A stretch of 64,000 nt of DNA, from contig MU057716.1 of NCBI GenBank assembly GCA_013265495.1, forward strand, positions 1 through 64,000, written 5' to 3'. Position numbers and translations under genes: made by a program. This DNA comes from Vicugna vicugna (lineage: Eukaryota). The notes beneath the pieces are model-generated. The model did no database searches. It worked only from the letters and a program-made list of their open reading frames with translations, and was not told the origin of the DNA. This document shows, piece after piece, positions 6,382 to 64,000 of the stretch (positions within the stretch are counted from its first letter, which is position 1; every line of letters begins with the position of its first letter).

Positions 6382-6849
6382 GAAAGCACGACTAAGGACA
6401 GGACGGTGAGAGAGCTCAATTGCTCTACGTTTTGTTTTTTTGTTTTTTTTAATGAAAGGAATGCTGAGTTGCAGGAGCAAGGAGGGGACTGCAGACCAGA
6501 GAGGCAAAGAGAGTAGAGAAGAAGGGAGGGGGCACAGGCAGTCCGCACAAGGCCAGGCAGCTGCACTTTTCAAAACAGCAGCAACGAATATTCAACTTCA
6601 AGTCACCTGCTATAGGTATTTTGTTCAATGCAACTCCCATTTCTACCATGAAATCTTAATGAAATCCCCTGCTTTTCTGAGTGGTGTTGGAGGCAAATGA
6701 AGGAGGAGACTTGAAGTTCTGCAGTTTGACTGACTCGGGCATAGACAAGGGCACAGACACAGGAGTCAAGGTGAGAGTGAATGTGAACATCCTGAGAAGT
6801 GGGAACTAGACCAGGAAACGACTAAGGGGACCACGTCCTCCCCGGGAAT

Positions 6850-7330
6850 GCTCAGAGAGGTCAGGGGATGCTGCGTCACTGCGGCTTTGTCAGACACACA
6901 GAGCCACTGCGTGGGAATTACCAGAGGGATCACAGCGCAGACGAGCATGGGAGCTGCTGAGGAATCCTGTGGGAGCTGCTGCCTCCTTGTTGGCTGTGCG
7001 CCTGAAGTCTCTGTAGAGCCTCAGGACCAGAGGTTGGGAAGAAAAGCTGAGCATGAAAAGGGGAGAGCAAGGGCAAACTGGAGCCTCCTCTCCTGCCACC
7101 TCCAACCTCAGCCACACGGGTGACCCGCAGAAGGAGCTGGCGCTCTCACCATGGAGCCTGGGGTTCTGAGAAGCCAAGGAAGGTGACCCAGCAGACGCTG
7201 GGGGAGCCCTGGGCGTGGCTGCTGCCTGGCGCCAACAGGATGTGCCAGTGGGTCAGCGACAACACGCCTGAACTCTGAGAGTAACCGGTACCCCGTGCCA
7301 CGCTAGTCAATAAACAGTGACTCACCATGG
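6850..7330 (-). mobile_element. ERVL LTR (MLT2F-like), 3' LTR of the adjacent remnant
   Basis: GTTGGGAAGAAAAGCTG...GGGAGAGCAAGGGCAAACTGGA resembles the recalled MLT2F consensus. It abuts the ERVL integrase end and contains an APOA4-like segment. Confidence 0.6.
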
Positions 7331-7344
7331 GTGGTGGTGGAAGG

Positions 7345-8980
7345 AACCACCCCCTCCCACACAGGACCCGGGGGCCCTAGTGACACAGGAAACAGCATCA
7401 CATGCTGGTCACTGCCTGAGGGCATACGCCGCACCCTTGAGGGCTTTATCTCAGCCCTGCTAGGTGTTGCTACCCAGCTGCCATGAAAACTAAATCTGCA
7501 AAAGGCTGCTCCAGCATTCTGACAAGCCAGAGGCCTCGGGTGATGAGGAACACAGTGGGATCAGTGAATCCCATCCGCACAAGCCCACTGCTGCACTGCA
7601 ACGGCTGCTAAATGAGCTCCTTGGTCAGGAGCAGTGCTGTGGGACCACCTTGATGCGAATTGTATCATGTAAGTCCACAGATGGTGGTTTTGGCTAAAGC
7701 GCTGAGGGCAAGGAAGGCAAATCCATATCAAGAGTGTCACTTCCAGTAAGAACCGAGTACTGCTTCCTCCAAGATGGATGTGGTCCAGCGCGATCAACCT
7801 GCCACCAGGTGTGTGTCTCGTCCCCCTGGGGATGGTGCCATGTCGTGGGGCTCAGAGCTGATCTCTGCTGTTGGCCGGCTGGGCATCAGCAGCAGCTGTA
7901 AATAGATCAGTCTTAGTGAGTGGGAAGTCCACGTTGCTAAGTCCACGCAAAGCCTCCAACTGTGATGCCACGGCCACTTTGCTCACAAGCCCACTGGGCA
8001 GGGGTAGGATGACGAGGGAAAGGGCCTGGCTGATGTCCGCAGAGCAGGGTATCTTGTCCACCTGGTTGTTAAGATTTTCTCTACTGAGGTTGCTCGTTGC
8101 TGGACAGAACATCTCCACGCTCTGCGACCACTCAGACACACCCATTCATGCACCTCCTTGTCACCAGCTTTCCAGTTGCGCTTCTCAGGTGGATACATTC
8201 AGTCCCTAACACTGACCATCTAGTCAAACCATTAGCCCCTGCCTGTGAACCAGTGGAGGGCCATATCTCAGGCCATCTCTTCTTCCAGGAAAGATAAGTC
8301 ACTAGGTGCACTCACTCCTTGCAGTACTGTCCAGCAACAGGACTCTGCTGCACCCCCGGACATCAGAGCCCCTCAGAGATGGCAGTAGCATCGGCTCTCT
8401 GCGTTGGGATGTGCCAGCATGTATGCAGCTCCATCAGCCAGGCCTGAATTTTGTTCTTCCTCGGTCAACATCAGTCAGAGGGAACGCCCCCATGAGGCCG
8501 CACGTGCAGGCTGAGAAAGAGGAGGCAAGGCAGCCGGAGGAGGGGCCGCGGGCATCTGGGCCACTTGCTCGTGCAGCTTGCCCGCGCCTCCAGGACCTGC
8601 TCAAGCTGTCCTGCGTGCCCCGCCTTGTGGCTTAGTGGGCCAGCCAGCACTCGGTTCACAACAGGCAGCTCAGGTTCATTCGATGGCTGGTGGCCAAGTG
8701 CTGAGTCTCTCCTGAGACCCAGTAGCAAGCCGCAAGCTGTTTCTCAAAAGAATGGCCACCTACCAGGGATGGCGGAGCTTTGCTCCAAAATCCTAAAGAA
8801 TGTCCATGCTGTAATTTGCCTGTGGGGCTGCCAAAGGCCGCACACGCCTCAGTCTACAAGGACACTCCAAGCACCACCGGCTGCGCCAGCTCACGTGACC
8901 GAGCCCTGGGCACAGCAGCCTGCACCTGCCGCGACGCCTTCGCTCTTGCCAGCCGGTATTCTGGCCCATTTCTGCGACCA
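7345..8980 (-). mobile_element. ERVL (class III ERV) internal pol remnant: RT end, RNase H and integrase, heavily decayed
   Basis: Minus fragments LSEWS, LNNQVDK, PLTKTDL.TAAA, DQGAHL....VQQWA..GIH and HHPEA resemble HERVL/ERVL-E pol motifs. Many stops and frameshifts. Confidence 0.85.
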
Positions 8981-9321
8981 CTTGCATATACACGTGCTAA
9001 AACATCCCTGGTGTTTGTCCTCCGCTAATTTAGAACTTAAGGGAAAGGGGCTCTTCATGGTGCGCTCCTCCAATACTCTTAACACGGCGGGCGCGGGACC
9101 CTGGAGATTCTCACTTACACATACAAGGAAAGGGCGCCTCCCGGAGGCGAGAGCTCCAGGACACCCGGTGACTGCCGTGTAAGACCCAGGTCCTCAAACG
9201 GACGTAAGGGCCAAGCAGGGATGACCACAAAACCACTTCTCTGATGCTAGAACAGTTTGTTGCAAAGCAAAAACCTCAGGTAATCATCTCTTTGGGTTTT
9301 TTCACTGCACTAAGCATCCAG

Positions 9322-18168: not shown

Positions 18169-18329
18169 GGGGGAGGGTGTAGCTCAGTGACGGAGCGTGT
18201 GCTTAGCATGCACCAGGTCCTGGGTTCAATCCCCAGTACCACCACTAAAAATAAATAAATAAATCGAATTACCTCCCCCTACCAAAAAAATTTTTTTTAA
18301 TTAAAAGATAATTAATTAATTATATTTTT
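18169..18329 (+). mobile_element. tRNA-Ala(AGC)-derived SINE (camelid Vic-1 type)
   Basis: A box TAGCTCAGTGACGG, anticodon arm TGCTTAGCATGCA, B box GGTTCAATCCC, (TAAA)n and A/T tail. TSD AAAAGCTAAGCAAGA 18154-18168 / AAAAGCTAACCAAGA 18330-18344. Confidence 0.9.
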
Positions 18330-18857: not shown

Positions 18858-18983
18858 ATTTTTCTATTTTTTTGGGGGGGTAATTAGGTTTGTTTGTTTC
18901 TTTGTTTAACGCAGGTACTGGGGATCGAACCCAGGACTTTGTGCATGCTAAGCATGTGCTCTACCACTGAGCTATACCCTCCC
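18858..18983 (-). mobile_element. tRNA-Ala-derived SINE (same family)
   Basis: Reverse complement reads GGGAGGGTATAGCTCAGTGGTAGAGCACATGCTTAGCATGCACAAAGTCCTGGGTTCGATCCCCAGTACC plus an A-rich tail. Confidence 0.9.
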
Positions 18984-32506: not shown

Positions 32507-32659
32507 AATTTTTTACTTACTTTATTTTATATTTTAGGGGGAGGTAATTAGGTTTATTTGTTTGTTTGTTTGTTTGTCTGAATGGAGGTACTGGGGATTG
32601 AACCCAGGACCTCATGCATGCTGAGCACATGCTCTACCACTGAGCTATTCTTTCCCCCC
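32507..32659 (-). mobile_element. tRNA-Ala-derived SINE (same family)
   Basis: Same head and CCTAATTACCTCCCC body. TSD ATGAGAAATGTTTTTT 32491-32506 / ATGACAGATGTTTTTT 32660-32675. Confidence 0.9.
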
Positions 32660-32751: not shown

Positions 32752-33252
32752 TTCTTACAGGACAACTAAGCACTCCTTTACATAGAATGCAGCTGCTGAC
32801 GATGGTTTACCAAATGGAATGAGGTGCCACCCTAAAAGGACTGTGAAAATACAACCCAAACTTGAGATCTGTACACTTTGGGGAGAAATACCAGAATGAA
32901 CCCAGACTCAAGTTTCTCATTGCAATAAACAAGTTGCTAGAACTTTCCCCTAATTTAATCTAATCTCAATTTTCAAAAGCCACAATGGACTTTCTAGACC
33001 ATTCTTACAGGACAACTAAGCACTCCTTTACATAGAATGCAGCTGCTGACGATGGTTTACCAAATGGAATGAGGTGCCACCCTAAAAGGACTGTGAAAAT
33101 ACAACCCAAACTTGAGATCTGTACACTTTGGGGAGAAATACCAGAACAAACCCAGACTCAAGTTTCTCACTGCAATAAACAAGTTGCTAGAAATTTCCCC
33201 TAACTTAATCTAATCTCAATTTTCAAAAGCCACAATGGACTTTCTAGACCAT
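32752..33252. repeat. Tandem duplication, 250 bp period
   Basis: TTCTTACAGGACAACTAAGC starts at 32752 and 33002. About 5 substitutions between copies by eye. Confidence 0.97.
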
Positions 33253-33348
33253 ACGTTCCTTGGGTTCATTTCCTATCACCAGTGATTTTCCTACTCATCA
33301 CCAGACCTGATGCCAAATATTTTTTCCACTTTTTAAAGTAGATGTAGC

Positions 33349-34188
33349 CATCATTCAAAAGTCCACAGAGGATAAATGCTGGAGAGGCTGTGGAGAAAAG
33401 GGGACCCTCCTACACTGCTGATGGGAATGCAGTTTGGTGCAGCCACTGTGGAAAACAGTATGGAGATTCCTCAAAAGACTAGCAATAGACTTACCATATG
33501 ACCCAGTAATCCCTCTCCTGGGCTTATATCCAGAAAGAACCCTACTTCAAAAAGACACCTGCACCCCAATGTTCACAGCAGCACTATTTACAATAGCCAA
33601 GACATGGAAACAGCCTAAATGTCCATNNNNNNNNNNNNNNNNNNNNNNNNNNNNNNNNNNNNNNNNNNNNNNNNNNNNNNNNNNNNNNNNNNNNNNNNNN
33701 NNNNNNNNNNNNNNNNNNNNNNNNNNNNNNNNNNNNNNNNNNNNNNNNNNNNNNNNNNNNNNNNNNNNNNNNNNNNNNNNNNNNNNNNNNNNNNNNNNNN
33801 NNNNNNNNNNNNNNNNNNNNNNNNNNNNNNNNNNNNNNNNNNNNNNNNNNNNNNNNNNNNNNNNNNNNNNNNNNNNNNNNNNNNNNNNNNNNNNNNNNNN
33901 NNNNNNNNNNNNNNNNNNNNNNNNNNNNNNNNNNNNNNNNNNNNNNNNACAGACTGGGAGTTCAAAATTTGTAGATACTGACAGGCATATGTAGAATAGA
34001 TAAAGAAGATTATACTGTATAGCACAGGGAAATGTATACATGATCTTGTGGTAGCTCACAGCAAAAAAAAATGTGACAATGAATATATGTTTGTTCATGT
34101 ATATCTGAAAAATTGTGCTCTACACTGGAATTTGACACATTGTAAAAAGACTATAACTCAATAAAATAAAATTTAAAATAATAATAAT
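33349..34188 (+). mobile_element. Young lineage-specific L1 3' fragment (spans the N gap)
   Basis: ORF2 C-terminus [13 protein letters not shown], 3'UTR and A-rich tail. TSD AAAGTAGATGTAGC 33335-33348 / AAAGTAAATGTAGC 34189-34202. Confidence 0.92.
33627..33948. other. Assembly gap (322 N) inside an L1
   Basis: N run. Confidence 1.
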
Positions 34189-35734
34189 AAAGTAAATGTA
34201 GCTCTTCCTTGGCAAGAGAGTTCTGAAGTTTCCTCTGAGCCAATTGAATTCTCAACACAAGATCAGACCAACAGGAATATAATGGAACCCAGGTGTTAGA
34301 CTAATTACTAATCTAACCATAAATGGAGAAAGGGAAATATTAATACATGATGAAATTGCTGTGTTATTACAGAATCCATCATAACGAAGTGATGCCCTCA
34401 CTTTGCTCAGAGGTTAACCGTGCGGACGGTACTGTATTGACCGGATGCTAATGAGTTGTGTGTGTAGCAGCAGGTAAGCAGGAAACGGCAGAAGGAAGCT
34501 ACTGTGACAGGTACATAATTACAATGGAAGTCATGTCTCGGGTAATGAACAGGATTCACATCACATCTTCCCAGTCACAGCACAATTTCTCCAGCTCTGT
34601 TTAGAATAATCGGTGGGATTATTTGACAGCAAGATGACATTTTGACTTTGGAACAAATTTTCTCCTAGAAAGCACAGTGACCCACTGACGCTGTAAGATG
34701 CAATTAGACACAGCCATGCTGGGCAACTTATCTCGTTCTAAACATGCAAATAGTAGAAATGTTCATTAGCACAGGAGCTTCTTCAGTCTTTGCATGTATC
34801 CCTTTTGGTCTATGGCTTGGTCATATGCAATGGATGCATTTTGAAATTTTTTAATTGCCTATTATTGAAGTTTGAAGTTTCACAATTTTAAATATGGAAC
34901 TCTGGCAGCTGAAACCAGCACCTGCGGTGGGTCAGATCTTTACTGTACACAGAGATTGTGTTTCAAGGAGATTATCTGGTTGATAGTCTATCTAAACCCA
35001 TTAACCAAAAAAAATCCATTTTATAAAGGAATTTTATTACAGTGTAAAATGTAATATGCTGGTAATATGTCTGCATTCTTACCAGTCCAGTTGTTTTATT
35101 TAAGTATGTGAAAGAGAGAAATCCTCCTTTTGTATGCTTTCCAGGTTTTGCCAAGTTCAGGATGGGAAGTCTTTCTCTGGGGAGGGGTGGGGGGTGTCTG
35201 TTGTGTGCATGCCTATGCATTCATGTTTGTCTACATTTAGTCATCTCTCAATTAACTGCATATAAAATAGCAAAGTTTTCATCCCACACTGATGTCCCCT
35301 GCCATCACTCAAAACCACCCTCCTCTCTCTTCAAAGTGTATTCAGGAGAAATCAGTAAGTTTTAACATTAGACTAAACAAATAATTAAATGGAAGAGAAG
35401 TCTAAAATAAATTATTTGTTATCTGTCATAATCAAATTATTTAAGCATCAACAATGCACTTAAAATCATGAAAAATAAGATAAATGTATTTTGCTTCTGT
35501 GGTATAGGCAGCATTTAAAATATACTCAGAAAACACTGGAAACTTGTGTTGTTCTATTGCACACTATGAACATGTCGTTAGTCAAAAGCAAAAAAAAAAA
35601 AAAGCACTAACTTCTTGGTGTGACAGTGTCTGATTGCCAGAGATTAGCAGACTAAGCTTCTGCAACATTCATCTGTAGCAAGGGACAATGCAACTACCTC
35701 CTGAGGTTTATTGTGAACATGTAATGAGATAAAG

Positions 35735-36790
35735 CAGGGCTGAGCACACCATGACCATGAGCCAAATCTGGCCTACCATCTACTTTTTTTCTAACAGCCC
35801 ACAACATAAGAACAGAGTTTACATTTTTCAATGCTTTTTTTAAATCAAAAGAGTAATATTTCATCATATGAAAATGGCATAAAGTTCAAGTTTCAGCACC
35901 TGTAAGTGAAGTGATGCTGGACCACAGCCCCACTCACTCGTTTTGTGTCATGGATGCCGTGTCCACATGACAACAGCAGAGTCGAGAAGCTGCAGCAGAA
36001 ACCATATGGCCTGCAAAACCCATATTTCCTGTCTAACCTTCCTACACTGCTGGTGGGAATGCAGCTTGGTGCAGCCACTGTGGAAAACAGTATGGAGATT
36101 CCTCAAAAGACTAGGAGTAGACTTACCATATGACCCAGTAATCCCTCTCCTGGGCTTATATCCAGAAGGAACCCTACTTCTAAAAGACACCTGCACCCCA
36201 ATGTTCACAGCAGCACTATTTACAATAGCCAAGACATGGAAACAGCCTAAATGTCCATCGACAGGTGACTGGATAAAGAAGTTGTGGTATATTTATACAA
36301 TGAAATACTATTCAGCCATAAAAAATGATGACATAACGCCATTTGCAGCAACATGGATGTCCCTGGAGAATGTCATTCTAAGTGAAGTAAGCCAGAAAGA
36401 TATAGAAAAATACATGAGATCGCTCATATGCGGAATCTAAAAATTGAACATAAATACAAAACAGAAACAGACTCATAGACATAGAATACAAACTTGTGGT
36501 TGCCAAGGGGGCAGGGGGTGGGAAGGGACAGACTGGGATTTCAAAATGTAGAATAGATAAACAAGGTTATACTGTCTAGTACAGGGAAATATATACAAGA
36601 TCTTGTGGTAGCTCACAACAAAAAAAAAGTGACAATGAATATATGTATGTTCATGCATAACTGAAAAATTGTGCTCTACACTGGAATTTGACACAACATT
36701 GTAAAATAACTATAACTCAATTTTAAAATGTTAATTAATTAATTAATTAATTTCCTGTCAGGCCCTTCACAGAAGTCTGCTGATCTCTGA
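35735..36790 (+). mobile_element. MER58B-like hAT-Charlie element split by the L1, itself within a MIR
   Basis: CAGGGCTGAGCA...GCCAAATCTGGCC...ATGGCCTGCAAAACC [L1] GGCCCTTCACAGAAGTCTGCTGATCTCTG. Confidence 0.7.
36034..36749 (+). mobile_element. Young L1 3' fragment (same family) inserted in MER58
   Basis: ORF2 C-terminus [14 protein letters not shown]...SLICGI*, 3'UTR and (TTAA)n tail. TSD ATTTCCTGTC 36024-36033 / 36750-36759. Confidence 0.92.
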
Positions 36791-39493: not shown

Positions 39494-39979
39494 GCAGGTG
39501 AGGGAATGAACAGTCACAAACCACAGGCTGAGGCGCTCCGTGGAATTACTCATTAGAAAGAATTTCTTCCTTCCCACACTGGACTACATCAACCCAGCTT
39601 CTTGAGGACTTGGGTGAATGCCTATCGCCCAGAAGGGACTTGGACTGGACCAAAAGCATCCCCTTCTCGCTTGCATGGACCTATCCCTCTGCCCCCACCA
39701 CAAAGGTGCCTGACAACTGTGAAGGTGGAATACAGAGCAGGTGAGGGAATGAACAGTCACAAACCACAGGCTGAGACGCTCCATGGAATTACTCATTAGA
39801 AAGAATTTCTTCCTTCCCACACTGGACTACATCAACCCAGCTTCTTGAGGACTTGTGTGAATGCCTGTCCCCCAGAAGGGACTTGAACTGGACCAAAATC
39901 ATCCCCTTCCCGCTTGCATGGACCTATCCCTGTGCCCCCACCACAAAGGTGCCTGACAACTGTGAAGGTGGAATACAGA
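39494..39979. repeat. Tandem duplication, 243 bp period
   Basis: GCAGGTGAGGGAATGAAC starts at 39494 and 39737. About 9 substitutions between copies by eye. Confidence 0.97.
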
Positions 39980-45282: not shown

Positions 45283-45899
45283 GAGGAGGAGAAAAGAGAG
45301 AAATCATATGTATAGACAATACACAGACATACGTTAAAACATCCTGAACACAAGCAAAATGGAGGAAGGGGGTTAACCGCATGGTGATGGAGGGTAATTA
45401 GACTCGTGGTGAGGATCACTCTGTGGTGTATACAGATGTCAAATTATATACCTGAAACTTAAATAAAATTTAAAATTCTGGCACAATAAATCACCATGTT
45501 CTCAAAAAGACCAAAGCCATGCAACTACAGAATAGACTCTCTTGTAAGATGAACGTCATGAACGTCTATCCCCGGAAACGTCTGTACAGATGCTGACATC
45601 TGTCCGCTGGTCATGGAAGGTCGAAGGTGAAAATACAGACTGCTGGACCTCCAGGGACCCTAAATCTAGACATGACACTGTTCTATCAAGTAACCCGGGT
45701 TTCCCTGGTACACAGGTCCTCTGAGAAGTTACACGTGGCCACAAAATGAAGTGCTGCTTGCGACAGGCTTTGTCTCCGTGGCTGCACGGTCAGTTCTCTT
45801 GGAAGACAAAGATGGAGTCTCATCCTCTTTGTCATCCTGGTCAAGGGCCTCATTCTTCCCAGGGTCACCCAAAACCTGTAAGAGACAACTCTATGACCA

Positions 45900-48090
45900 T
45901 CTCTCTTGCTCTCATCTTACTGTATCTCTCAGCAGCACAGACACTTCCTCTCTAAAGCACCGTTTTATTTTGGTTTTCCAGCTTTTCACCTGCAGTGCTG
46001 GCTCTTCCTTCTGCAGTGCTGGCTCTTCCTTCTCCGTCTCTTTTGCTGATTCCTCCTCCTCTTCCCAACCTCTGTGTTGGTGTGGCCTACGATGCAGTTC
46101 TGGGACATCTACTCCTGGTTCCATACTCTCTCCTGAGATCAGCTGGTCCAGTTTCTGGTCTTCAAACAGCGTCTGTATGCAAATTATGCCCAAATTTATA
46201 TCTGTAGCGCTGACTTATCTGGTCTTAGTGTTTTGATGCCAAATAAACATCTGAAACGAACTACGCTGAAATCAAACTGTTCTTTCCCATCTCAGGAGAT
46301 TGCTCGAGACAAATACCTCTTTCCTTCATCACGACATCTACTTCCACCAATATATCCTATAGTTTCTCTCTCCAAAATGTATTTCATTATCAACCACTTC
46401 TATTTCCACTATTTCCACTCGAATCCACTTACCTGAAATAGCCCGAGGTGTCTTCCCACTCCCATTGTCGCCACCACGGTCATTCCTCTAGCTAGAATGA
46501 TTTTTTTAAGCAGTTAGGCCATTTATTGGCATTACCAGAGCATTCCTTTCAACAAGGGAGGGGACTCTGAACACTAAAACCTCACCTATTTTGTGAAAAC
46601 TTGAGACTAAACTCTCCATCATCTGTACACAGCTTAATCACGAACGGGAGCAAGAATTTCAGTTAAATAAATTGAGCCGAACTGCCCTGCTACAAGATGA
46701 TGAAAGGAAAGCTGGGTGCCCCCGAAAAGTTCTTGCTTTCACACTATGGTATTTCAGGTGCAGGAATCCAACAACTCCCCAGCGCAGCAAGAAGTGCTTC
46801 CCGCTGCATCTTAAAGCAGTCATTCCATGGTCAAGCGTCCAAAGGCTAAGACAGTTTCGTGGGAAATGGGCACGGCCTTCGGCTCCGTGCGCGGCCCGCA
46901 GCTGAGAAGCCAGGTTCTTAAGACCTGAAGGCTGGCTGCCACGCTCTCGGGGAGGGCGCCTCCACAGAGTCTCCGGCTTCAGGTCTCAGCCGCCCCGTCT
47001 ACCAACTGCAGTCCTGGCGAGGGAAGACCCGCCAGGCTTCCACACTGAAGTCACCAGGCTCCTCACTGCCCTCCAGGACGTGCCGCTTGATCTCGGACGG
47101 GTCACTCCAGGTGACCAACCCCCCAAGCTGCGCGTGACGAGGAAGGCGGGGTCGGCGGCCGCGTCCGGGCCCCCGCGCACGTGGCCCTCGTCCACGAAAG
47201 CCACGGCGACCGGGAGGTGCGGCGCCACGCGCAGCTCCGGGAGCCCGGCGGTCGGGCGGCGGCGGCGAGGACGAGGCCGAGACGAAGTGGCAGAGCTTCC
47301 GCTACCCGCGCGCGGGCCCTGGGCCGGCAGCGCGGGACTGGTCCGGCAGCAGAGCCGACAGCACGGGACTGGTCCGGCAGCGCGGCCCGGACGCCGCAGT
47401 GCCCGTCTTTCCCCCCAGGTCCGCGCAGGCGCCGCGGAGCCCGTCTCGCCCGGCAGGTCCGCGCAGGCGCCGTGGAGCTGTCTCGCCCACCAGGTCCGCG
47501 CAGGCGCCGCACCAGCTCACGCAGCGCATGGCTCGGCCCAGCGTGGTGCACGCGGTCCTCGCGCAGCCGCAGCACATGCACCTCGCACAAGTCGTGGTCA
47601 GTGACCTCCCAGAATTATTTTCTTAACTATTCTTCTGACTACACGTAGAATAAAATCCAAACTCCTCAGCAGGCCTTACGAGAACCTCATAGCCCAGTCC
47701 CTGCCTGCCTCTCCCTCCCTGTCTTGCTTTCTCCCTTCCTTGCTCGCTAGGCTCTGGCTACAAGGGGTCCTTCCAGAGCCTTGAACTTGCCAAATTTGCT
47801 GCTGCCTCAGGCCCTTTGCCCTTGCTGTTTCCAATGCTTGGGATGCTCTTCTCCCTCCCTAGCTGATTCCATATCCTTAAAGAGGCTTTTTCTCATTCCT
47901 CACCCATCACTCTCAACTACATTCATCCTATTTTATTTTCTCTATAGATTCTGTGTTAATTTGATTATTGTCCTTATTCCCACTGGAGAGTAAGCTTTAA
48001 GAAAATTAGGACTTCATCCAACATTTTCACAGTATCTGAGTACCCAGAATGATGCCTGGCCCAAATAGATATTTGTTAAAGAAATGAATA
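45900..48090 (+). mobile_element. L2 relic split by the IMP3 retrocopy
   Basis: L2-like sequence at about 45900-46493 resumes at 47625 (AGAATAAAATCCAAACTCCT..., GCCTCAGGCCCTTTGC...) and ends in the L2 tail ATGCCTGGC...ATTTGTTAAAGAAATGAAT. Confidence 0.65.
46501..47610 (-). pseudogene. IMP3: IMP3 (U3 snoRNP protein) processed pseudogene, 5'-truncated and frameshifted
   Basis: Minus translation fragments [69 protein letters not shown] and DFSVEA match IMP3 ([45 protein letters not shown]). 3'UTR, AATAAA (46522-46527), A-tail remnant (46501-46507), TSD AGAATGATTTTTTT 46494-46507 / AGAATTATTTTCTT 47611-47624. Confidence 0.92.
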
Positions 48091-49991
48091 AAAGTATCAA
48101 AGAGAGATTTGGGGTTAACTGAAAGGGTTTGGTTAAGTGATGATTTCATGTCACAGTTGGAGTCACAGAGGTTAAAAAACATTGATCTCTGTTATAAACA
48201 AGTTCCCCTAACAAGTGTACATCAGGTCTGGGACAGGGAGAGTGGTGCTGGCAGAGACTGCAACTAGTGCCTCTCAGGCTCAACTCCTTTTGTTTTGCAT
48301 TCTCAATTTCTCAATGTAGGAAACACAGTTTAAATGATGAATTGGCCTGTTTCTTCCAGAACCCCACAGTGTACTGGCATGAAACAAAGAGATACCAAGG
48401 CAGAAAGCCTGCTAATGGTGCCAGTTCAGACCAAGGCAGGAATTAACCCATTTATACCATCAGATATGTCTCCTTCCTCTAGGAAACCACCCAAAGTAAT
48501 GTTATGAGACACTTCGGATATCATATGAAAAATGCCCATGAGGACATTCTCTGCAGTCCCTGATGAGCTTGTAGTGCCATAGCAAGTGCCACCTCCGTTT
48601 TCAGGAATGTCCATTATTTTTAGATATTAAAGCAAATCTCATAAGGGGAATTAAGGATTACAGGGTATCAATGTAAAGAGAAAATAATCATTCTCAATCG
48701 TGACTGCATTATGTGAAAAAATGACTTCCTTTCATTGGATTTGAGTTTAAACTGTAATACTGAGGTTGGCTTCTCCAAGTTGTCTCAGGTAACTTATTTG
48801 TAGTCATGATGTGGAAAAACACGATTTGCCATCAGTAGCCTATTATTTCTACACTGCTCAGTGATTTGTGACCTGAATAAATAGGCCCGGTGGTTTAACA
48901 GGGTAAGAAGGCTGCTAAGACATGTGGAGGCAAAGATAAAACCTCGTGTCCATTCTCTCCAAGAAGGTGAACTTGATTCAGTGGACATGCAAGTCATGAC
49001 ACTTCCAAAAGCCTGGCCATCCACCTGGAACCCTTCCACACGGAGCCTTCTTCCAAGGGACATCCGGGGGATGTGATGGCACTGGCTGAAATAAGGTGAT
49101 CCAAGAGGGAAAATCATTTTTGTTGTTATAGGCTTCTGAAGTCCTTAGGAAAACGTATTTCAAGACAGAATTATCTGGATAATTTTTCCTCATTTTCCCA
49201 TTTCCCTTTGCAGGTGTAATCACAGCCGAATATTTCATTGCCAACTCCCCTGTGACTGGCACAGCCATGAATGGATTTCTTCCCTGTTGGTAGGGTGCCA
49301 CATTGCCTGATGAGGCCTTAAAAGAGTCTTCGAGAAAAGGTGCCAGAATGGTGTGAAATACCACACCTCTGGAGAAGAAAGGCTAGAGATCTCTGGGTTG
49401 CTGACAACTTGCCAGCCATCAAAATTATTTTAAAACACCTGATTTTCTTTTGCTGTTGTTCTTTAAACTCCAAGCCCTTTGGCCAGTCCCCTGATGTCGG
49501 TATCTACATCCTTCGTTGGCTTTTGTTCCTCTAACAAATAACATGAAGATGTGATGCACTGAGGAGATTAAATTGAGTGTGTGCGTGTGTGTGCACTTGC
49601 ATGTGAAAAGGAGAGCATCTGTTTTCCCAGGGTGTGTCAAAGATGCATGGTTCTTAATGACTTCTGCCCGGATTTACTCATAATCAAAGGTTTAAATGTC
49701 TCATGCTCCAAACATCTGAGCCATACTAAATTAATGGAAGAGAATGGTAATTGTTCACTTGGGGAACAAAACAGAATGCCACATTAAGAAATCATTGGAA
49801 ACTCTGTTTTCCTAACACTGTCCTACTCTAAAATTTGGAGAAATATGGTCACAGGAATTCAAACTACATTCCCAAACTAAAGGCATTTTTGCCTCCTCGT
49901 CTAAACAAAGTCCTCCATAACAGGGTCTGTGTAGTATCTCTGGGTCCTAACTGAATGCCCTACAAACAGAAGGGGCTGAATACATGTTTTT

Positions 49992-60090: not shown

Positions 60091-60216
60091 GGGGAAGGTA
60101 TAGCTCAGTGGTAGAGTGTGTGCTTAGCATGCATGAGGTCCTGGGTTCAATCCCCAGTACCTCCGTTACAAATAAATAAATAAGCCCAATTACCACCCCT
60201 CACCTCCCCCCCAAAA
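60091..60216 (+). mobile_element. tRNA-Ala-derived SINE in ATP23 intron (antisense to the gene)
   Basis: GGGGAAGGTATAGCTCAGTGGTAGAG...TGCTTAGCATGCA...GGTTCAATCCCCAGTACCTCC followed by (AAAT)n. Confidence 0.9.
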
Positions 60217-60477: not shown

Positions 60478-61987
60478 ACTATCACCACTCCTATTCAACA
60501 TAGTCTTGGAAGTCCTAGCCACAGCAATCAGGCAAAAAAGGGAAATAAAAGGGATCCAAATTGGAAAAGAAGAGGTAAAAGTGTCACTATATGCAGATGA
60601 CATGATACTATATATAGAAAACCCTAAAAGGTCCACACAAAAACTATTAGAGCTGATCGAAGAATTCAGCAAGGAAGCAGGTTACAAGAACTATGTTCAA
60701 AAATCAGTTGCATTTCTTTACACTAACGATGAAATCAACAGGAAAAGAAAGTAAAGAAACAATCCCCTTTAAAATAGCACCCAAAGTAATAAAATACCTA
60801 GGAATAAATCTAACCAAGGAGGTGAAAGGCTTTTACACAGAAAACTAAAAAACACTCATTAAGGAAATTAAAGAAGACTTAAAAAAATGGAAAGCTATCC
60901 CATGCTTCTGGAGTGGAAGAATCAATATTGTTTAAATGGTCACACTGCCCAAGGCAATCTACAGATTTAATGCAATCCCTTATCAAATTACCCAGGACAT
61001 ATTTCACAGAACTAGAACAAATCATAATAAAATTTATATGGAACCACAAAAGACCTAGAATTGCCAAAGCATTACTGAAGAAAAAGAAAGAGGCTGGAGG
61101 AATAACTCTCCCAGACTTCAGACAATACTACAGAGCTACAGTCATCAAGACAGCATGGTATTGGTACAAAAACAGACATATAGACCAAAGGAACACAACA
61201 GAGAGCCCAGAAATGAACCCACAAACTTTTGGTCAACTAATCTTCAACAAAGGAGGCAAGAATATACAATGGAATAAAGACAGTCTCTTCAGCAAATGGT
61301 GTTGGGAAAACTGGACAGCAGCATGTAAAGCAATGAAGCTAGAACACTCCCTTACACCATACACAAAAATCAACTCAAAATGGATCAAAGACTTAAACAT
61401 AAGACAAGATACAATAAACCTCCTAGAAGAAAACATAGACAAAACATTATCTGACATACATCTCAAAAATGTTCTCCTAAGGCAGTCTACCCAAGCAATA
61501 GAAATAAAAGCAAGAATAAACAAATGAGACCTAATTAAACTTACCAGCTTCTGCACAGCAAAGGAAACCATAAGTAAAACAAAACAACAATCTATGGAAT
61601 GAGAGAAAATTTTTCCAAATGAAACCCACAAAGGCTTGATCTCCAGAATATATAAGCAGCTCATACGATATAATAAGAAAAAAATAACAACCCAATCCAA
61701 AAATGGGCAGAAGACCTAAACAAGCAATTCTCCAAGGAAGAAATACAAACAATCAAAAGGCACATGAAAAAATGCTCAATATCACTAATTATCAGAGAAA
61801 TGCAAATCAAAACTACAATGAGGTATCACCAACACCAGTCAGAATGGCCATCATTCAAAAGTCCACAAATGACAAATGCTGGAGAGACTGTGGAGTAAAG
61901 GGAACTCTCCTACACTGCTGGTGGGAATGCAGTTTGGTGCAGCCACTGTGGAAAACACTATGGAGATTCCTCAAAAGACTAGGAATA
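60478..61987 (+). mobile_element. 5'-truncated L1, ORF2 RT to C-terminal region, disabled
   Basis: Translates to [13 protein letters not shown]...[26 protein letters not shown] and [14 protein letters not shown], with frameshifts and stops. Interrupted at about 61987 by a second L1. Confidence 0.95.
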
Positions 61988-64000
61988 AAGAGAAGCAAGA
62001 TGGTGGAGTAGAAAGATGCTTGTAGCTCACCCTCTCCCACAAATACACCAAAACTCACATCTATAGACCCACTCAGCCAACCAGAGCACCTACCAAACTC
62101 TGACAGAACATCGCCCTCTACAAAAGGCAAAGATGCCAAAAATCTGGTAGGAGAAAAGGAAAAAAGAAAGAAGAAAAAACAAAACAGCGTGGGACCAGTC
62201 CTGCGGGGAGGGAGTGGCAAAGGAGGAATAGTGCTGATTCGCTGGGTCTCCCCTCTCCAATGGAGAGGCCAACAGGACAGAGGGGGAGCCTCCAAGGCTC
62301 AGATCTGCTCCGAGCACCCCTTGACCAACAGAACTAAGTTAAATGGGCACAGAGGGTCCCCACGACACCCAGCCCGAGACGCAAGCCAGCAGCTGGGGGC
62401 CGGGACAGGCCGCCTGAGCCAGGCGGAGGACTGGGGCAGCTGCACTGAGACGGCCCCGGGGGACTGCAAGGGGCTGCGTGCCACGGTTGGGAGGAGATAC
62501 GGAGCAGAACAACCACGGTCCCCCATAAATTGTGAAAAAAGCAAAGCAACATGGTTAGTGTGCCCTGGGGGGAGGAGCACCGCAGCCTTTGTGTCCTCAG
62601 ACCCATGACGCTGTTACTGGAGCTTTGTGTGAGAAGAGAGGCGGGGCGCAGCCACAGCCACCATCTCCTCCTGTGTGCAATGCCCAGGCAGGGGCGGGGC
62701 CAAGCCCTGAATCCATATCTGGGGGCTCCGCAACCTCCTAGGCAGGACTGAGACTTGTTTACAGCCCAAGGCAGATAGGATCTTTCTGCCCTGGCACCTC
62801 AGAGAACTTGTGCCGCCAAGGCAAACAAGGAGCTGAGATTTGGCACAGAGCTGGGGCAGGGCTGTTCCACGGTCTTCCCCAAGCCTGCCTACGGAACCTA
62901 CGGAGCTCCAAGGCAGAGCGGGCAGCTGCACAGAGCAGCGGACCAACAGGCGCCAGGAGAGGGCGGGCAGCCACCCGCCTTCCTGGCAGGAACGCAGCAC
63001 CTTACCACGGTGCTGGGCAGAGTGCAGCATCTGACTGCGGCATAGGGAGGGGGAGTGACCCACCCACCCACCGGCCACAGTACCAGAGAGATATGAGCAA
63101 GATGAAGAAGAAGAGGAACCACTCCTAATTAAAAGATCAAGAGAAATCCCGTGAAAGCACAAGCAAGGGAATAGACATTGATGGCCTACTAGATCAAGAT
63201 TTCAAAAAAGGAGTGATCAAAGTACTGAAGGAACTAAAAGAAATAGTCTTTAGAGTATAAAATATGTCAAAATTAAATAGAAGCTATAAAGAAGAACCAA
63301 GCAGAATTAGTGAACACATTGGCTGAGATAAGAGCTGAACTAAAGGCTGTGCAAAGCAGGCTAGATAATGCAGAGGAACGAATAAGTGACCTTAGAAGAC
63401 AGGACAACAGAAAGCACCCAATCAGAACAGCTGAAAGAAAAACAAATGAAAAACAATGAAAACAATATAAGAGACCTATGGGATAATATAAAGCATGCCC
63501 ATCTACACATAACAGGGGTCCCAGAAGGGGAAGAAAGAACAAAGGGGATTGAAAAGGTATTTGAAGAAATCGTGACTGCAAACTTTCCAAAGTTAAAGAA
63601 GGAATCAGATATCCTAGTACAGGAGGCTCAGAGGGTCCCAAACAGGAAGAACCCAAACAGACCCACACCAAGACACACCATAATCCAGATGGCCAGAGTC
63701 AAGGACAAAGAAATGATCCTAAAGGCAGCAAAAGAAAAACAAAGAGTGAGTTACAAGGAAACCCCCATAAGGCTCTCAGCTGATTTCTCAACACAACCTC
63801 TACAGGCCAGAAGGGAGTGGCAAGATATATTCAAAGTCCTGAATGAAAAAAAGATGCAGCCTAGGATAGTCTATTCAGCAAGGCTGTCCTTTAGAATAGA
63901 AGGAGAGATAAAGAACTTCCCAGACAAGCAAAAACTAAGAGTTTAGCAACACTAAACTCATGCTAAAAGAAATATTTCTAAATAGAAAAGAAGCAAGATG
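61988..64000 (+). mobile_element. L1 with 5' end: GC-rich 5'UTR (about 61988-63092) and disabled ORF1 (from 63093), continuing beyond the window
   Basis: Starts AAGATGGTGGAGTAG (typical L1 5' start). ORF1-like RDLWDNIK..ITGVPE, RPTPRHTII, PIRLSADFS and ARREWQDIF. Nonsense TAA at 63126-63128 plus frameshifts. Confidence 0.93.

Follow-up and report, generated by a model that had tools for sequence, protein, structure and literature searches.

A short stretch within the first 64,000 nucleotides of the Vicugna vicugna contig MU057716.1 (the window) very likely derives, judging from comparisons of its conceptual translation and those of related copies, from the coding sequence of apolipoprotein A-IV (APOA4), and lies in antisense orientation beside an integrase-like remnant of an endogenous retrovirus. 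We consider it probable that this stretch goes back to a single ancient capture of APOA4 sequence into an ERVL element's long terminal repeat (LTR), with passive copying thereafter and a family-wide distribution among the descendants of that element. The surviving piece is a broken fossil rather than a gene or a paralogue; it makes no apolipoprotein, and the locus in the window bears no sign of function.

Position, frames and decay of the APOA4-like segment

Translation of the plus strand at 7165-7275 gave the same peptide as the first-pass annotation of this DNA, and alignment by eye with human APOA4 (PDB 9hx4_F, precursor residues 95-131) likewise returned the 16 identities over 37 gap-free positions that it had counted. 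The APOA4 text that it had quoted also agrees with the sequence printed in PDB and with the tryptic peptides given in PMC3886437. The octapeptide GDPQKELA, which it had placed ahead of this frame, is indeed encoded at 7119-7142 and is identical by eye to five of the eight residues 74-81 of APOA4, but it belongs to a different frame and is separated from the longer piece by two deletions. The spacing between the two pieces in the window is 17 bases shorter than that in APOA4, with 1 base missing near 7146 and 16 near 7160, and the APOA4 match therefore resolves into three frame pieces (Table 1).

Immediately after the 37-codon frame there are stops at 7276 and 7282, and the sequence beyond it, up to 7302, agrees with peptide 115-123 of the mature protein (as listed in PMC3886437) at 2 of 9 positions and lacks the third-position bias described below. 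Thus, where an intact apolipoprotein gene would present a signal peptide and a repeat array in one open frame, the window presents three frame pieces and these two stops. Relative to the human protein (PDB 3s84 and 9hx4), whose residues 74-132 are matched by the related copies at up to 30 of 59 positions and by the window at 16 of 37 plus 5 of 8, the piece covers about 15% of the length, has no signal peptide, and is frameshifted and interrupted by stops. The plus strand has an AATAAA at 7309-7314, just behind the piece, where the integrase remnant adjoins it; this motif is not followed by an A-tail and is probably a chance occurrence.

Table 1. Features of the APOA4-like segment and its host element in the window
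Feature	Positions	Strand	Remarks
LTR-like body; on the element strand it lies downstream of the insert	6872..7118	-	probable 3' end 'CA' at 6872
APOA4-derived piece 1	7119..7145	+	frame 3; human precursor residues 74-82; from translation, 5 of the first 8 residues identical
Broken stretch	7146..7164	+	short frame-2 piece, about residues 83-87; 1-base and 16-base shortfalls on either side
APOA4-derived piece 2	7165..7275	+	frame 1, 37 open codons; residues 95-131; 16/37 identical to APOA4
Possible further decayed APOA4 stretch (weak)	7276..7302	+	about residues 132-140; two stops
Junction of integrase remnant and APOA4-like piece	7303..7312		placed by motif order
Frameshifted pol remnant (end of RT, RNase H, integrase)	7313..9200 (upper limit approximate)	-	motifs, GC contrast

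Related peptides and codon-position bias

The likeness to APOA4 put forward by the first-pass annotation becomes a significant match when it is traced through related copies, whereas the window copy by itself recovers no apolipoprotein from PDB at E<=10. The 37-residue frame drew three sequences from PDB within that threshold, all of them ribosomal protein (best E 0.4); the window peptide matched no Pfam family, and a word-based protein search with the read-through peptide yielded zero candidates. With the native 70-residue frame at 7066-7275 as query against 1,835,955,588 proteins, two matches were recovered at E<=0.001, namely P0002 (E 8.2e-4) and P0003 (E 8.8e-4). P0003, a reindeer peptide predicted by a partial and unnamed gene model (CAN0371094.1), is identical to the window at 22 of 41 positions. 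P0002 is an unrelated tryptophan-rich bacterial repeat protein and was rejected; given that it scored equally with P0003, the step from the window to P0003 lies near the threshold.

A PDB search with P0003 recovered APOA4 at E 4.1e-8 (3s84) and 2e-7 (9hx4, residues 74-132, with 30 of 59 positions identical by eye), the third and last match being a designed protein at E 0.58. When residues 1-62 of P0003 were used as query, three of the five candidates were retained, and these together with their cluster members make up the set P0003-P0010. APOA4 was likewise the best PDB match of P0004 (E 3.6e-7), P0005 (E 2.8e-3) and P0007 (E 1.6e-6), the three that were searched among the seven further peptides. 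Other apolipoproteins were absent at E<=10 from the PDB searches with P0003, P0004, P0005 and P0007, in a set that we take to include APOA1 and APOE. Placed back on the window, residues 1-62 of P0003 and 41-102 of P0007 both found their best position at 7150-7272, with 46.6 bits (against a maximum of 25.0 in 100 shuffles) and 36.6 bits (against 28.1 in 100 shuffles), respectively.

Further searches added nothing to this set: P0003 gave none of 226 candidates at E<=1 among longer proteins and nothing usable in the Atlas, and P0005 was confirmed in none of 235 candidates from genome contigs and in none of 16 from viral contigs. A blastn search with 6600-7320 found no plasmid match and one phage match, at E 0.7. 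Scans with degenerate DNA motifs returned nine bacterial matches in genome contigs, none in viral ones and one in a 378-kb metagenome contig, all of which were set aside as chance. The reindeer records P0003, P0004 and P0006, carried in NCBI and UniRef as 'uncharacterised proteins', are seemingly spurious gene models laid over a repeat-borne APOA4 fossil, the frame of which is more open in deer than in the window.

The codon-position composition of the segment is a second, independent sign that supports its former coding nature. Read in the APOA4 frame, 7165-7275 has G or C at 32 of its 37 third codon positions, as against 21 and 19 at the first and second, a bias with a shuffle p of 0.0006 (0.0015 if any position is allowed to carry it). 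Among 14,186 windows of similar GC content elsewhere in the 64 kb, 14 reach the same contrast, and all of these fall at 8579-8599 inside the pol remnant, which is itself former coding sequence. A stretch of lower GC content near 6707, outside the range of the controls, shows an equal contrast, and the GC signal is therefore support for the APOA4 case rather than proof of it. The APOA4 origin claimed by the first-pass annotation is thus supported on two sides, by the matches of the related copies to APOA4 and by this bias.

The host element and the origin of the insert

The same annotation had placed the piece inside an ERVL LTR. The retroviral setting holds, with the piece lying antisense beside an integrase-like remnant, but LTR-like sequence is present on one side of it only. 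The pol remnant was recognised by its motifs: integrase-like D, D and E residues occur at 7795, 7626 and 7519 on the minus strand, the last two separated by 107 bases as against the 108 of a D-x35-E spacing. Searches of the pol/integrase remnant against Pfam, PDB, the Atlas and viral contigs gave nothing usable; two of the 14 viral-contig candidates for the integrase piece passed, one of which, L011, is an antisense match in an unrelated ORF. We take the remnant from 7313 to about 9200 to be of ERVL type and 6872-7118 to be the 3' part of an MLT2F-like LTR. Such an arrangement, an ERVL-type LTR beside pol, resembles that of the MLT2F and MLT2E LTRs (of HERVL and ERVL-E), the assignment being our own and the names those used in the Repbase review PMC5753468, which lists MLT2F under HERVL. 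A full human MLT2F measures 656 bases, according to PMC2008291, and the copy in the window is without the 5' part of the LTR.

Since the pol remnant is read on the minus strand and runs towards a piece read on the plus strand, the piece is antisense to the element. The integrase remnant reaches about 7313 and meets the APOA4-like piece within some 10 bases, with neither a polypurine tract nor an LTR start (TG) between them. This direct contact leaves LTR-like sequence on one side only, and accordingly the boundary of pol and LTR, comprising the end of integrase, the polypurine tract and the start of the LTR, has probably been lost here. On the element strand neither AATAAA nor ATTAAA was found, and a CA end is plausible at 6872. 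The likeness to APOA4 begins abruptly at residue 73/74 in every alignment, while the copies continue to match each other upstream of this point; the insert is therefore bounded and sits in foreign sequence that the copies share. In keeping with this, residues 1-40 of P0007, which are not related to APOA4, align to 7015-7119 with 32 bits (best of 100 shuffles 25.8), such that both the piece and its flank recur in another mammal.

In the scenario we favour, an internal piece of the APOA4 coding sequence, of about 190-200 bases, would on a single occasion, at an early stage of placental evolution, have been inserted into an active ERVL element's LTR, in the orientation opposite to the transcript of the element. 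It would subsequently have been copied passively within the LTR at each retrotransposition of the lineage, and the window copy would since have been truncated on the pol side and have decayed neutrally. In normal retroviral replication, sequence in the U3 region of the 3' LTR is copied into both LTRs of all progeny. A transfer from host to element is suggested because the codon bias and repeat register of APOA4 are kept while the copies contain stops and frameshifts; P0003 also aligns weakly to later APOA4 repeats, an indication that the piece retains the apolipoprotein repeat register, which again favours this direction. In one study ERV-L spread about 110 million years ago, in the ancestor of placentals (PMC11359688), and in another one orthologous ERV-L is at least 104-110 million years old (PMC3758187), dates that likely frame the age of the capture.

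As to the further claim of the first-pass annotation, that the element had spread the piece, the copies recovered outside the window all belong to one deer- or ruminant-type locus that is possibly the orthologue of the insertion in the window. The reindeer and the unnamed ENA peptides have a two-residue insertion in common and are about 80% identical, and therefore count as one locus. Six residues that differ from human APOA4 are common to all five aligned rows, a pattern that would fit orthology of one insertion and a common master element equally, and some of the six may reflect parallel CpG decay or the state of APOA4 in non-human species. P0004 1-106 and P0003 63-114, which flank the APOA4-like part in the reindeer models, scored 21.9 and 21.6 bits against the window, within the range of shuffles, and these unmatched flanks might weakly favour separate insertions.

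No second copy of the piece occurs within the 64-kb window. Contigs from 4 of the 24 listed sequencing runs, compared at 80% likeness, contained the locus itself and, from a related organism, a copy with 95% identity; further copies did not pile up over the piece at this cut, below which copies of such age would mostly fall. None of the 24 runs is listed as RNA; two that are possibly RNA contributed short contigs of about 95-97% identity, which we read as the orthologue of the related species and which are uninformative on expression. The MLT2F reference sequence presumably contains this APOA4-like segment, in agreement with the first-pass annotation. In human, MLT2F is multi-copy, with 11 rows at 7 loci in PMC2008291.

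Alternatively, a fragment of APOA4 cDNA or exon might have entered one integrated LTR before the split of the camel-like and deer-like lineages, such that the reindeer copy would be its orthologue and the element would never have spread the piece. The single other locus, the six common residues and the identities of the window, higher with the reindeer copy (22/41) than with human APOA4 (16/37), all speak for such an event, which would also need no special account of the antisense orientation. Against it, an internal fragment cut at both ends and with no visible A-tail is unlike an L1 retrocopy, the flanks of the reindeer models have no match in the window, and the MLT2F reference presumably contains the segment. 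Of the marks of an L1-processed pseudogene, the A-tail is absent and the match stops in the middle of the coding sequence, but that side of the copy is truncated. We regard such an isolated insertion as unlikely, but as the foremost alternative to the scenario favoured here.

Far less probable is a position in the internal region, at its 3' end, as found for host inserts in transducing retroviruses, with the LTR-like body starting only after the piece. The integrase remnant does abut the piece at about 7303-7313 with no LTR start seen on that side, but the LTR left at 6872-7118 would then amount to about 250 bases as against the 656 of a full human MLT2F, a clear TG start is absent, and a later deletion across the boundary of pol and LTR would simply account for the junction. 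APOA4-type genes are older than mammals. This speaks against derivation of the APOA4 exon from the LTR, and such a reversal, like a resemblance to an amphipathic helix through chance or composition, for which it counts that the window copy alone recovers no apolipoprotein at E<=10 and has an unrelated ribosomal protein as its top PDB match, is highly improbable in view of the four related peptides that match APOA4 specifically, the codon-position bias in the APOA4 frame and the repeat register that runs on through APOA4. The presumed RefSeq number of APOA4 does not appear in the human table of exon/LTR overlaps in PMC2008291, which implies either that the APOA4 exon was not annotated as LTR by RepeatMasker at the time or that the gene was unlisted.

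Returning to the capture in an active ERVL element, the first-pass annotation had traced the piece to APOA4 mRNA. Its antisense orientation relative to pol argues against a simple template switch onto mRNA: a switch of this kind, made while the minus strand is being synthesised, would be expected to leave the insert in sense. The piece presumably sits within the last coding exon of APOA4 and spans no intron whose loss would mark an mRNA origin. Among the LTR-mediated retrocopies of PMC5131818, 12 of 18 are transcribed in sense, as against 6. An insert in antisense rather suggests that the proviral 3' LTR was patched at the DNA level, or that the switch was onto antisense RNA. The former, in which an active provirus would have had its 3' LTR patched with APOA4 cDNA or exon DNA, is the likeliest of the routes, and is tentatively put forward as such; a template switch onto an antisense RNA that crosses APOA4 is also possible, though somewhat doubtful. 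A switch onto mRNA during plus-strand synthesis is unlikely, and the standard switch onto sense mRNA, which would require the strand assignment to be wrong, more unlikely still.

Comparable captures, the MBD1 exon and other features of the window

For the case of HERV-K and FAM8A1, Tan et al. (2016) cite Jamain et al. (2001). Capture of host sequence by LTR elements is a known phenomenon, described in PMC5131818, which includes FAM8A1 captured by HERV-K, three human and eight mouse cases, and maize Bs1. The present piece resembles the LTR-mediated retroposition of HERV-K/FAM8A1 in that it comprises part of a host coding sequence, has cut ends, shows no L1 hallmarks, is apparently embedded in an LTR element and could be recopied with it (Tan et al. 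2016, PMC5131818). It differs from the retrocopies described there, which are young, internal and mostly transcribed in sense, in its age, in its antisense orientation to pol and in its apparent position inside the LTR. As in maize Bs1, pieces of a host gene would have become fixed in a master element and multiplied with common junctions; Bs1, however, is a plant element of 1-5 copies with its host pieces in an internal position (PMC5131818), whereas an LTR-borne piece would persist in solo LTRs and could reach a far higher copy number.

In the same survey, human cases had to be absent from non-primate placentals, a rule that excludes an event this old, and nine of its ten supplementary files contain no match for APOA4 or MLT2. 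Another screen, described in PMC9004415, discards host-gene matches that overlap annotated repeats. Together, the repeat-overlap and lineage-restricted rules of these two studies imply that existing screens would miss such a capture. A literature search found no account of APOA4 in an ERVL LTR within its scope, outside which subscription journals, Repbase Reports and Dfam notes largely fell; the capture has possibly already been recorded by repeat curators.

As reported in PMC2008291, human MBD1 variant 2 (NM_015845) has a final coding exon of 190 bases that derives wholly from a 656-base MLT2F on the opposite strand and spans about positions 307-497 of it. Mapped from the probable LTR end at 6872, with indels ignored, this exon corresponds to about 7030-7220 in the window, and it would thus reach the start of the APOA4-derived piece. 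The tail of the MBD1 variant 2 isoform presumably fits such an overlap. These coordinates raise the prospect, conceivable though somewhat short of probable, that a whole ERVL LTR family older than the placental radiation carries an antisense APOA4 piece and that at least one of its copies was recycled into MBD1, a relay from gene to retrovirus to gene.

Were this so, dispersed APOA4 fossils would be present in placental genomes in their hundreds to thousands, with a date of about 100 million years and hidden from pseudogene surveys by repeat masking, and APOA4-derived bases would encode part of another human protein, MBD1. An old capture fixed in an LTR would differ in scale from the handful of young mammalian ERV cases; surviving in solo LTRs, it would provide an early-mammal APOA4 exon in many samples, each decaying neutrally, would allow the element to be dated against the APOA4 tree and, by its antisense orientation, would offer a test of how inserts enter LTRs. 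It would also account for gene models, the reindeer records among them, that are spuriously 'APOA4-like'.

Several other features were observed in the window, the DNA of which is of mammalian type, with L1 pieces and tRNA-like SINEs. A CpG-rich island at 46900-47620 contains short tandem repeats, with periods of 19-38, and on both strands several long open frames, none of which matched a Pfam family at E<=0.1; this region is possibly a promoter island or a decayed element. An open frame at 45694-46233 is without a Pfam match and, we presume, resembles a remnant of L2 reverse transcriptase, and two overlapping long open frames lie on the minus strand at 48797-49382 (best Pfam E 0.089). A bacterial promoter scan was empty and is of no relevance here. 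Two tandem duplications, at 32752-33252 (about 250 bases, 98%) and 39494-39979 (about 243 bases, 96%), are near-perfect and could be either real or artefacts of assembly overlap.

Four tRNA-like heads, three of Ala and one of Leu type, occur at 18173-18245, 18910-18981, 60094-60165 and 32583-32654 and match each other at about 77-85%. The head at 18173 runs into an A-rich tail, and the four belong to a tRNA-derived SINE family rather than to tRNA genes. We take these SINEs to be of the camelid type, for which PMC8605555 gave no confirmation. A young L1 occupies 60883-63943; its ORF1 (Pfam Transposase_22 at 63386-63943, E 1.7e-21) lies downstream of sequence that resembles ORF2 and has the same strand, an order that suggests two L1 copies side by side. 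Related L1 3' pieces are found at 33345-34195 and 36035-36750.
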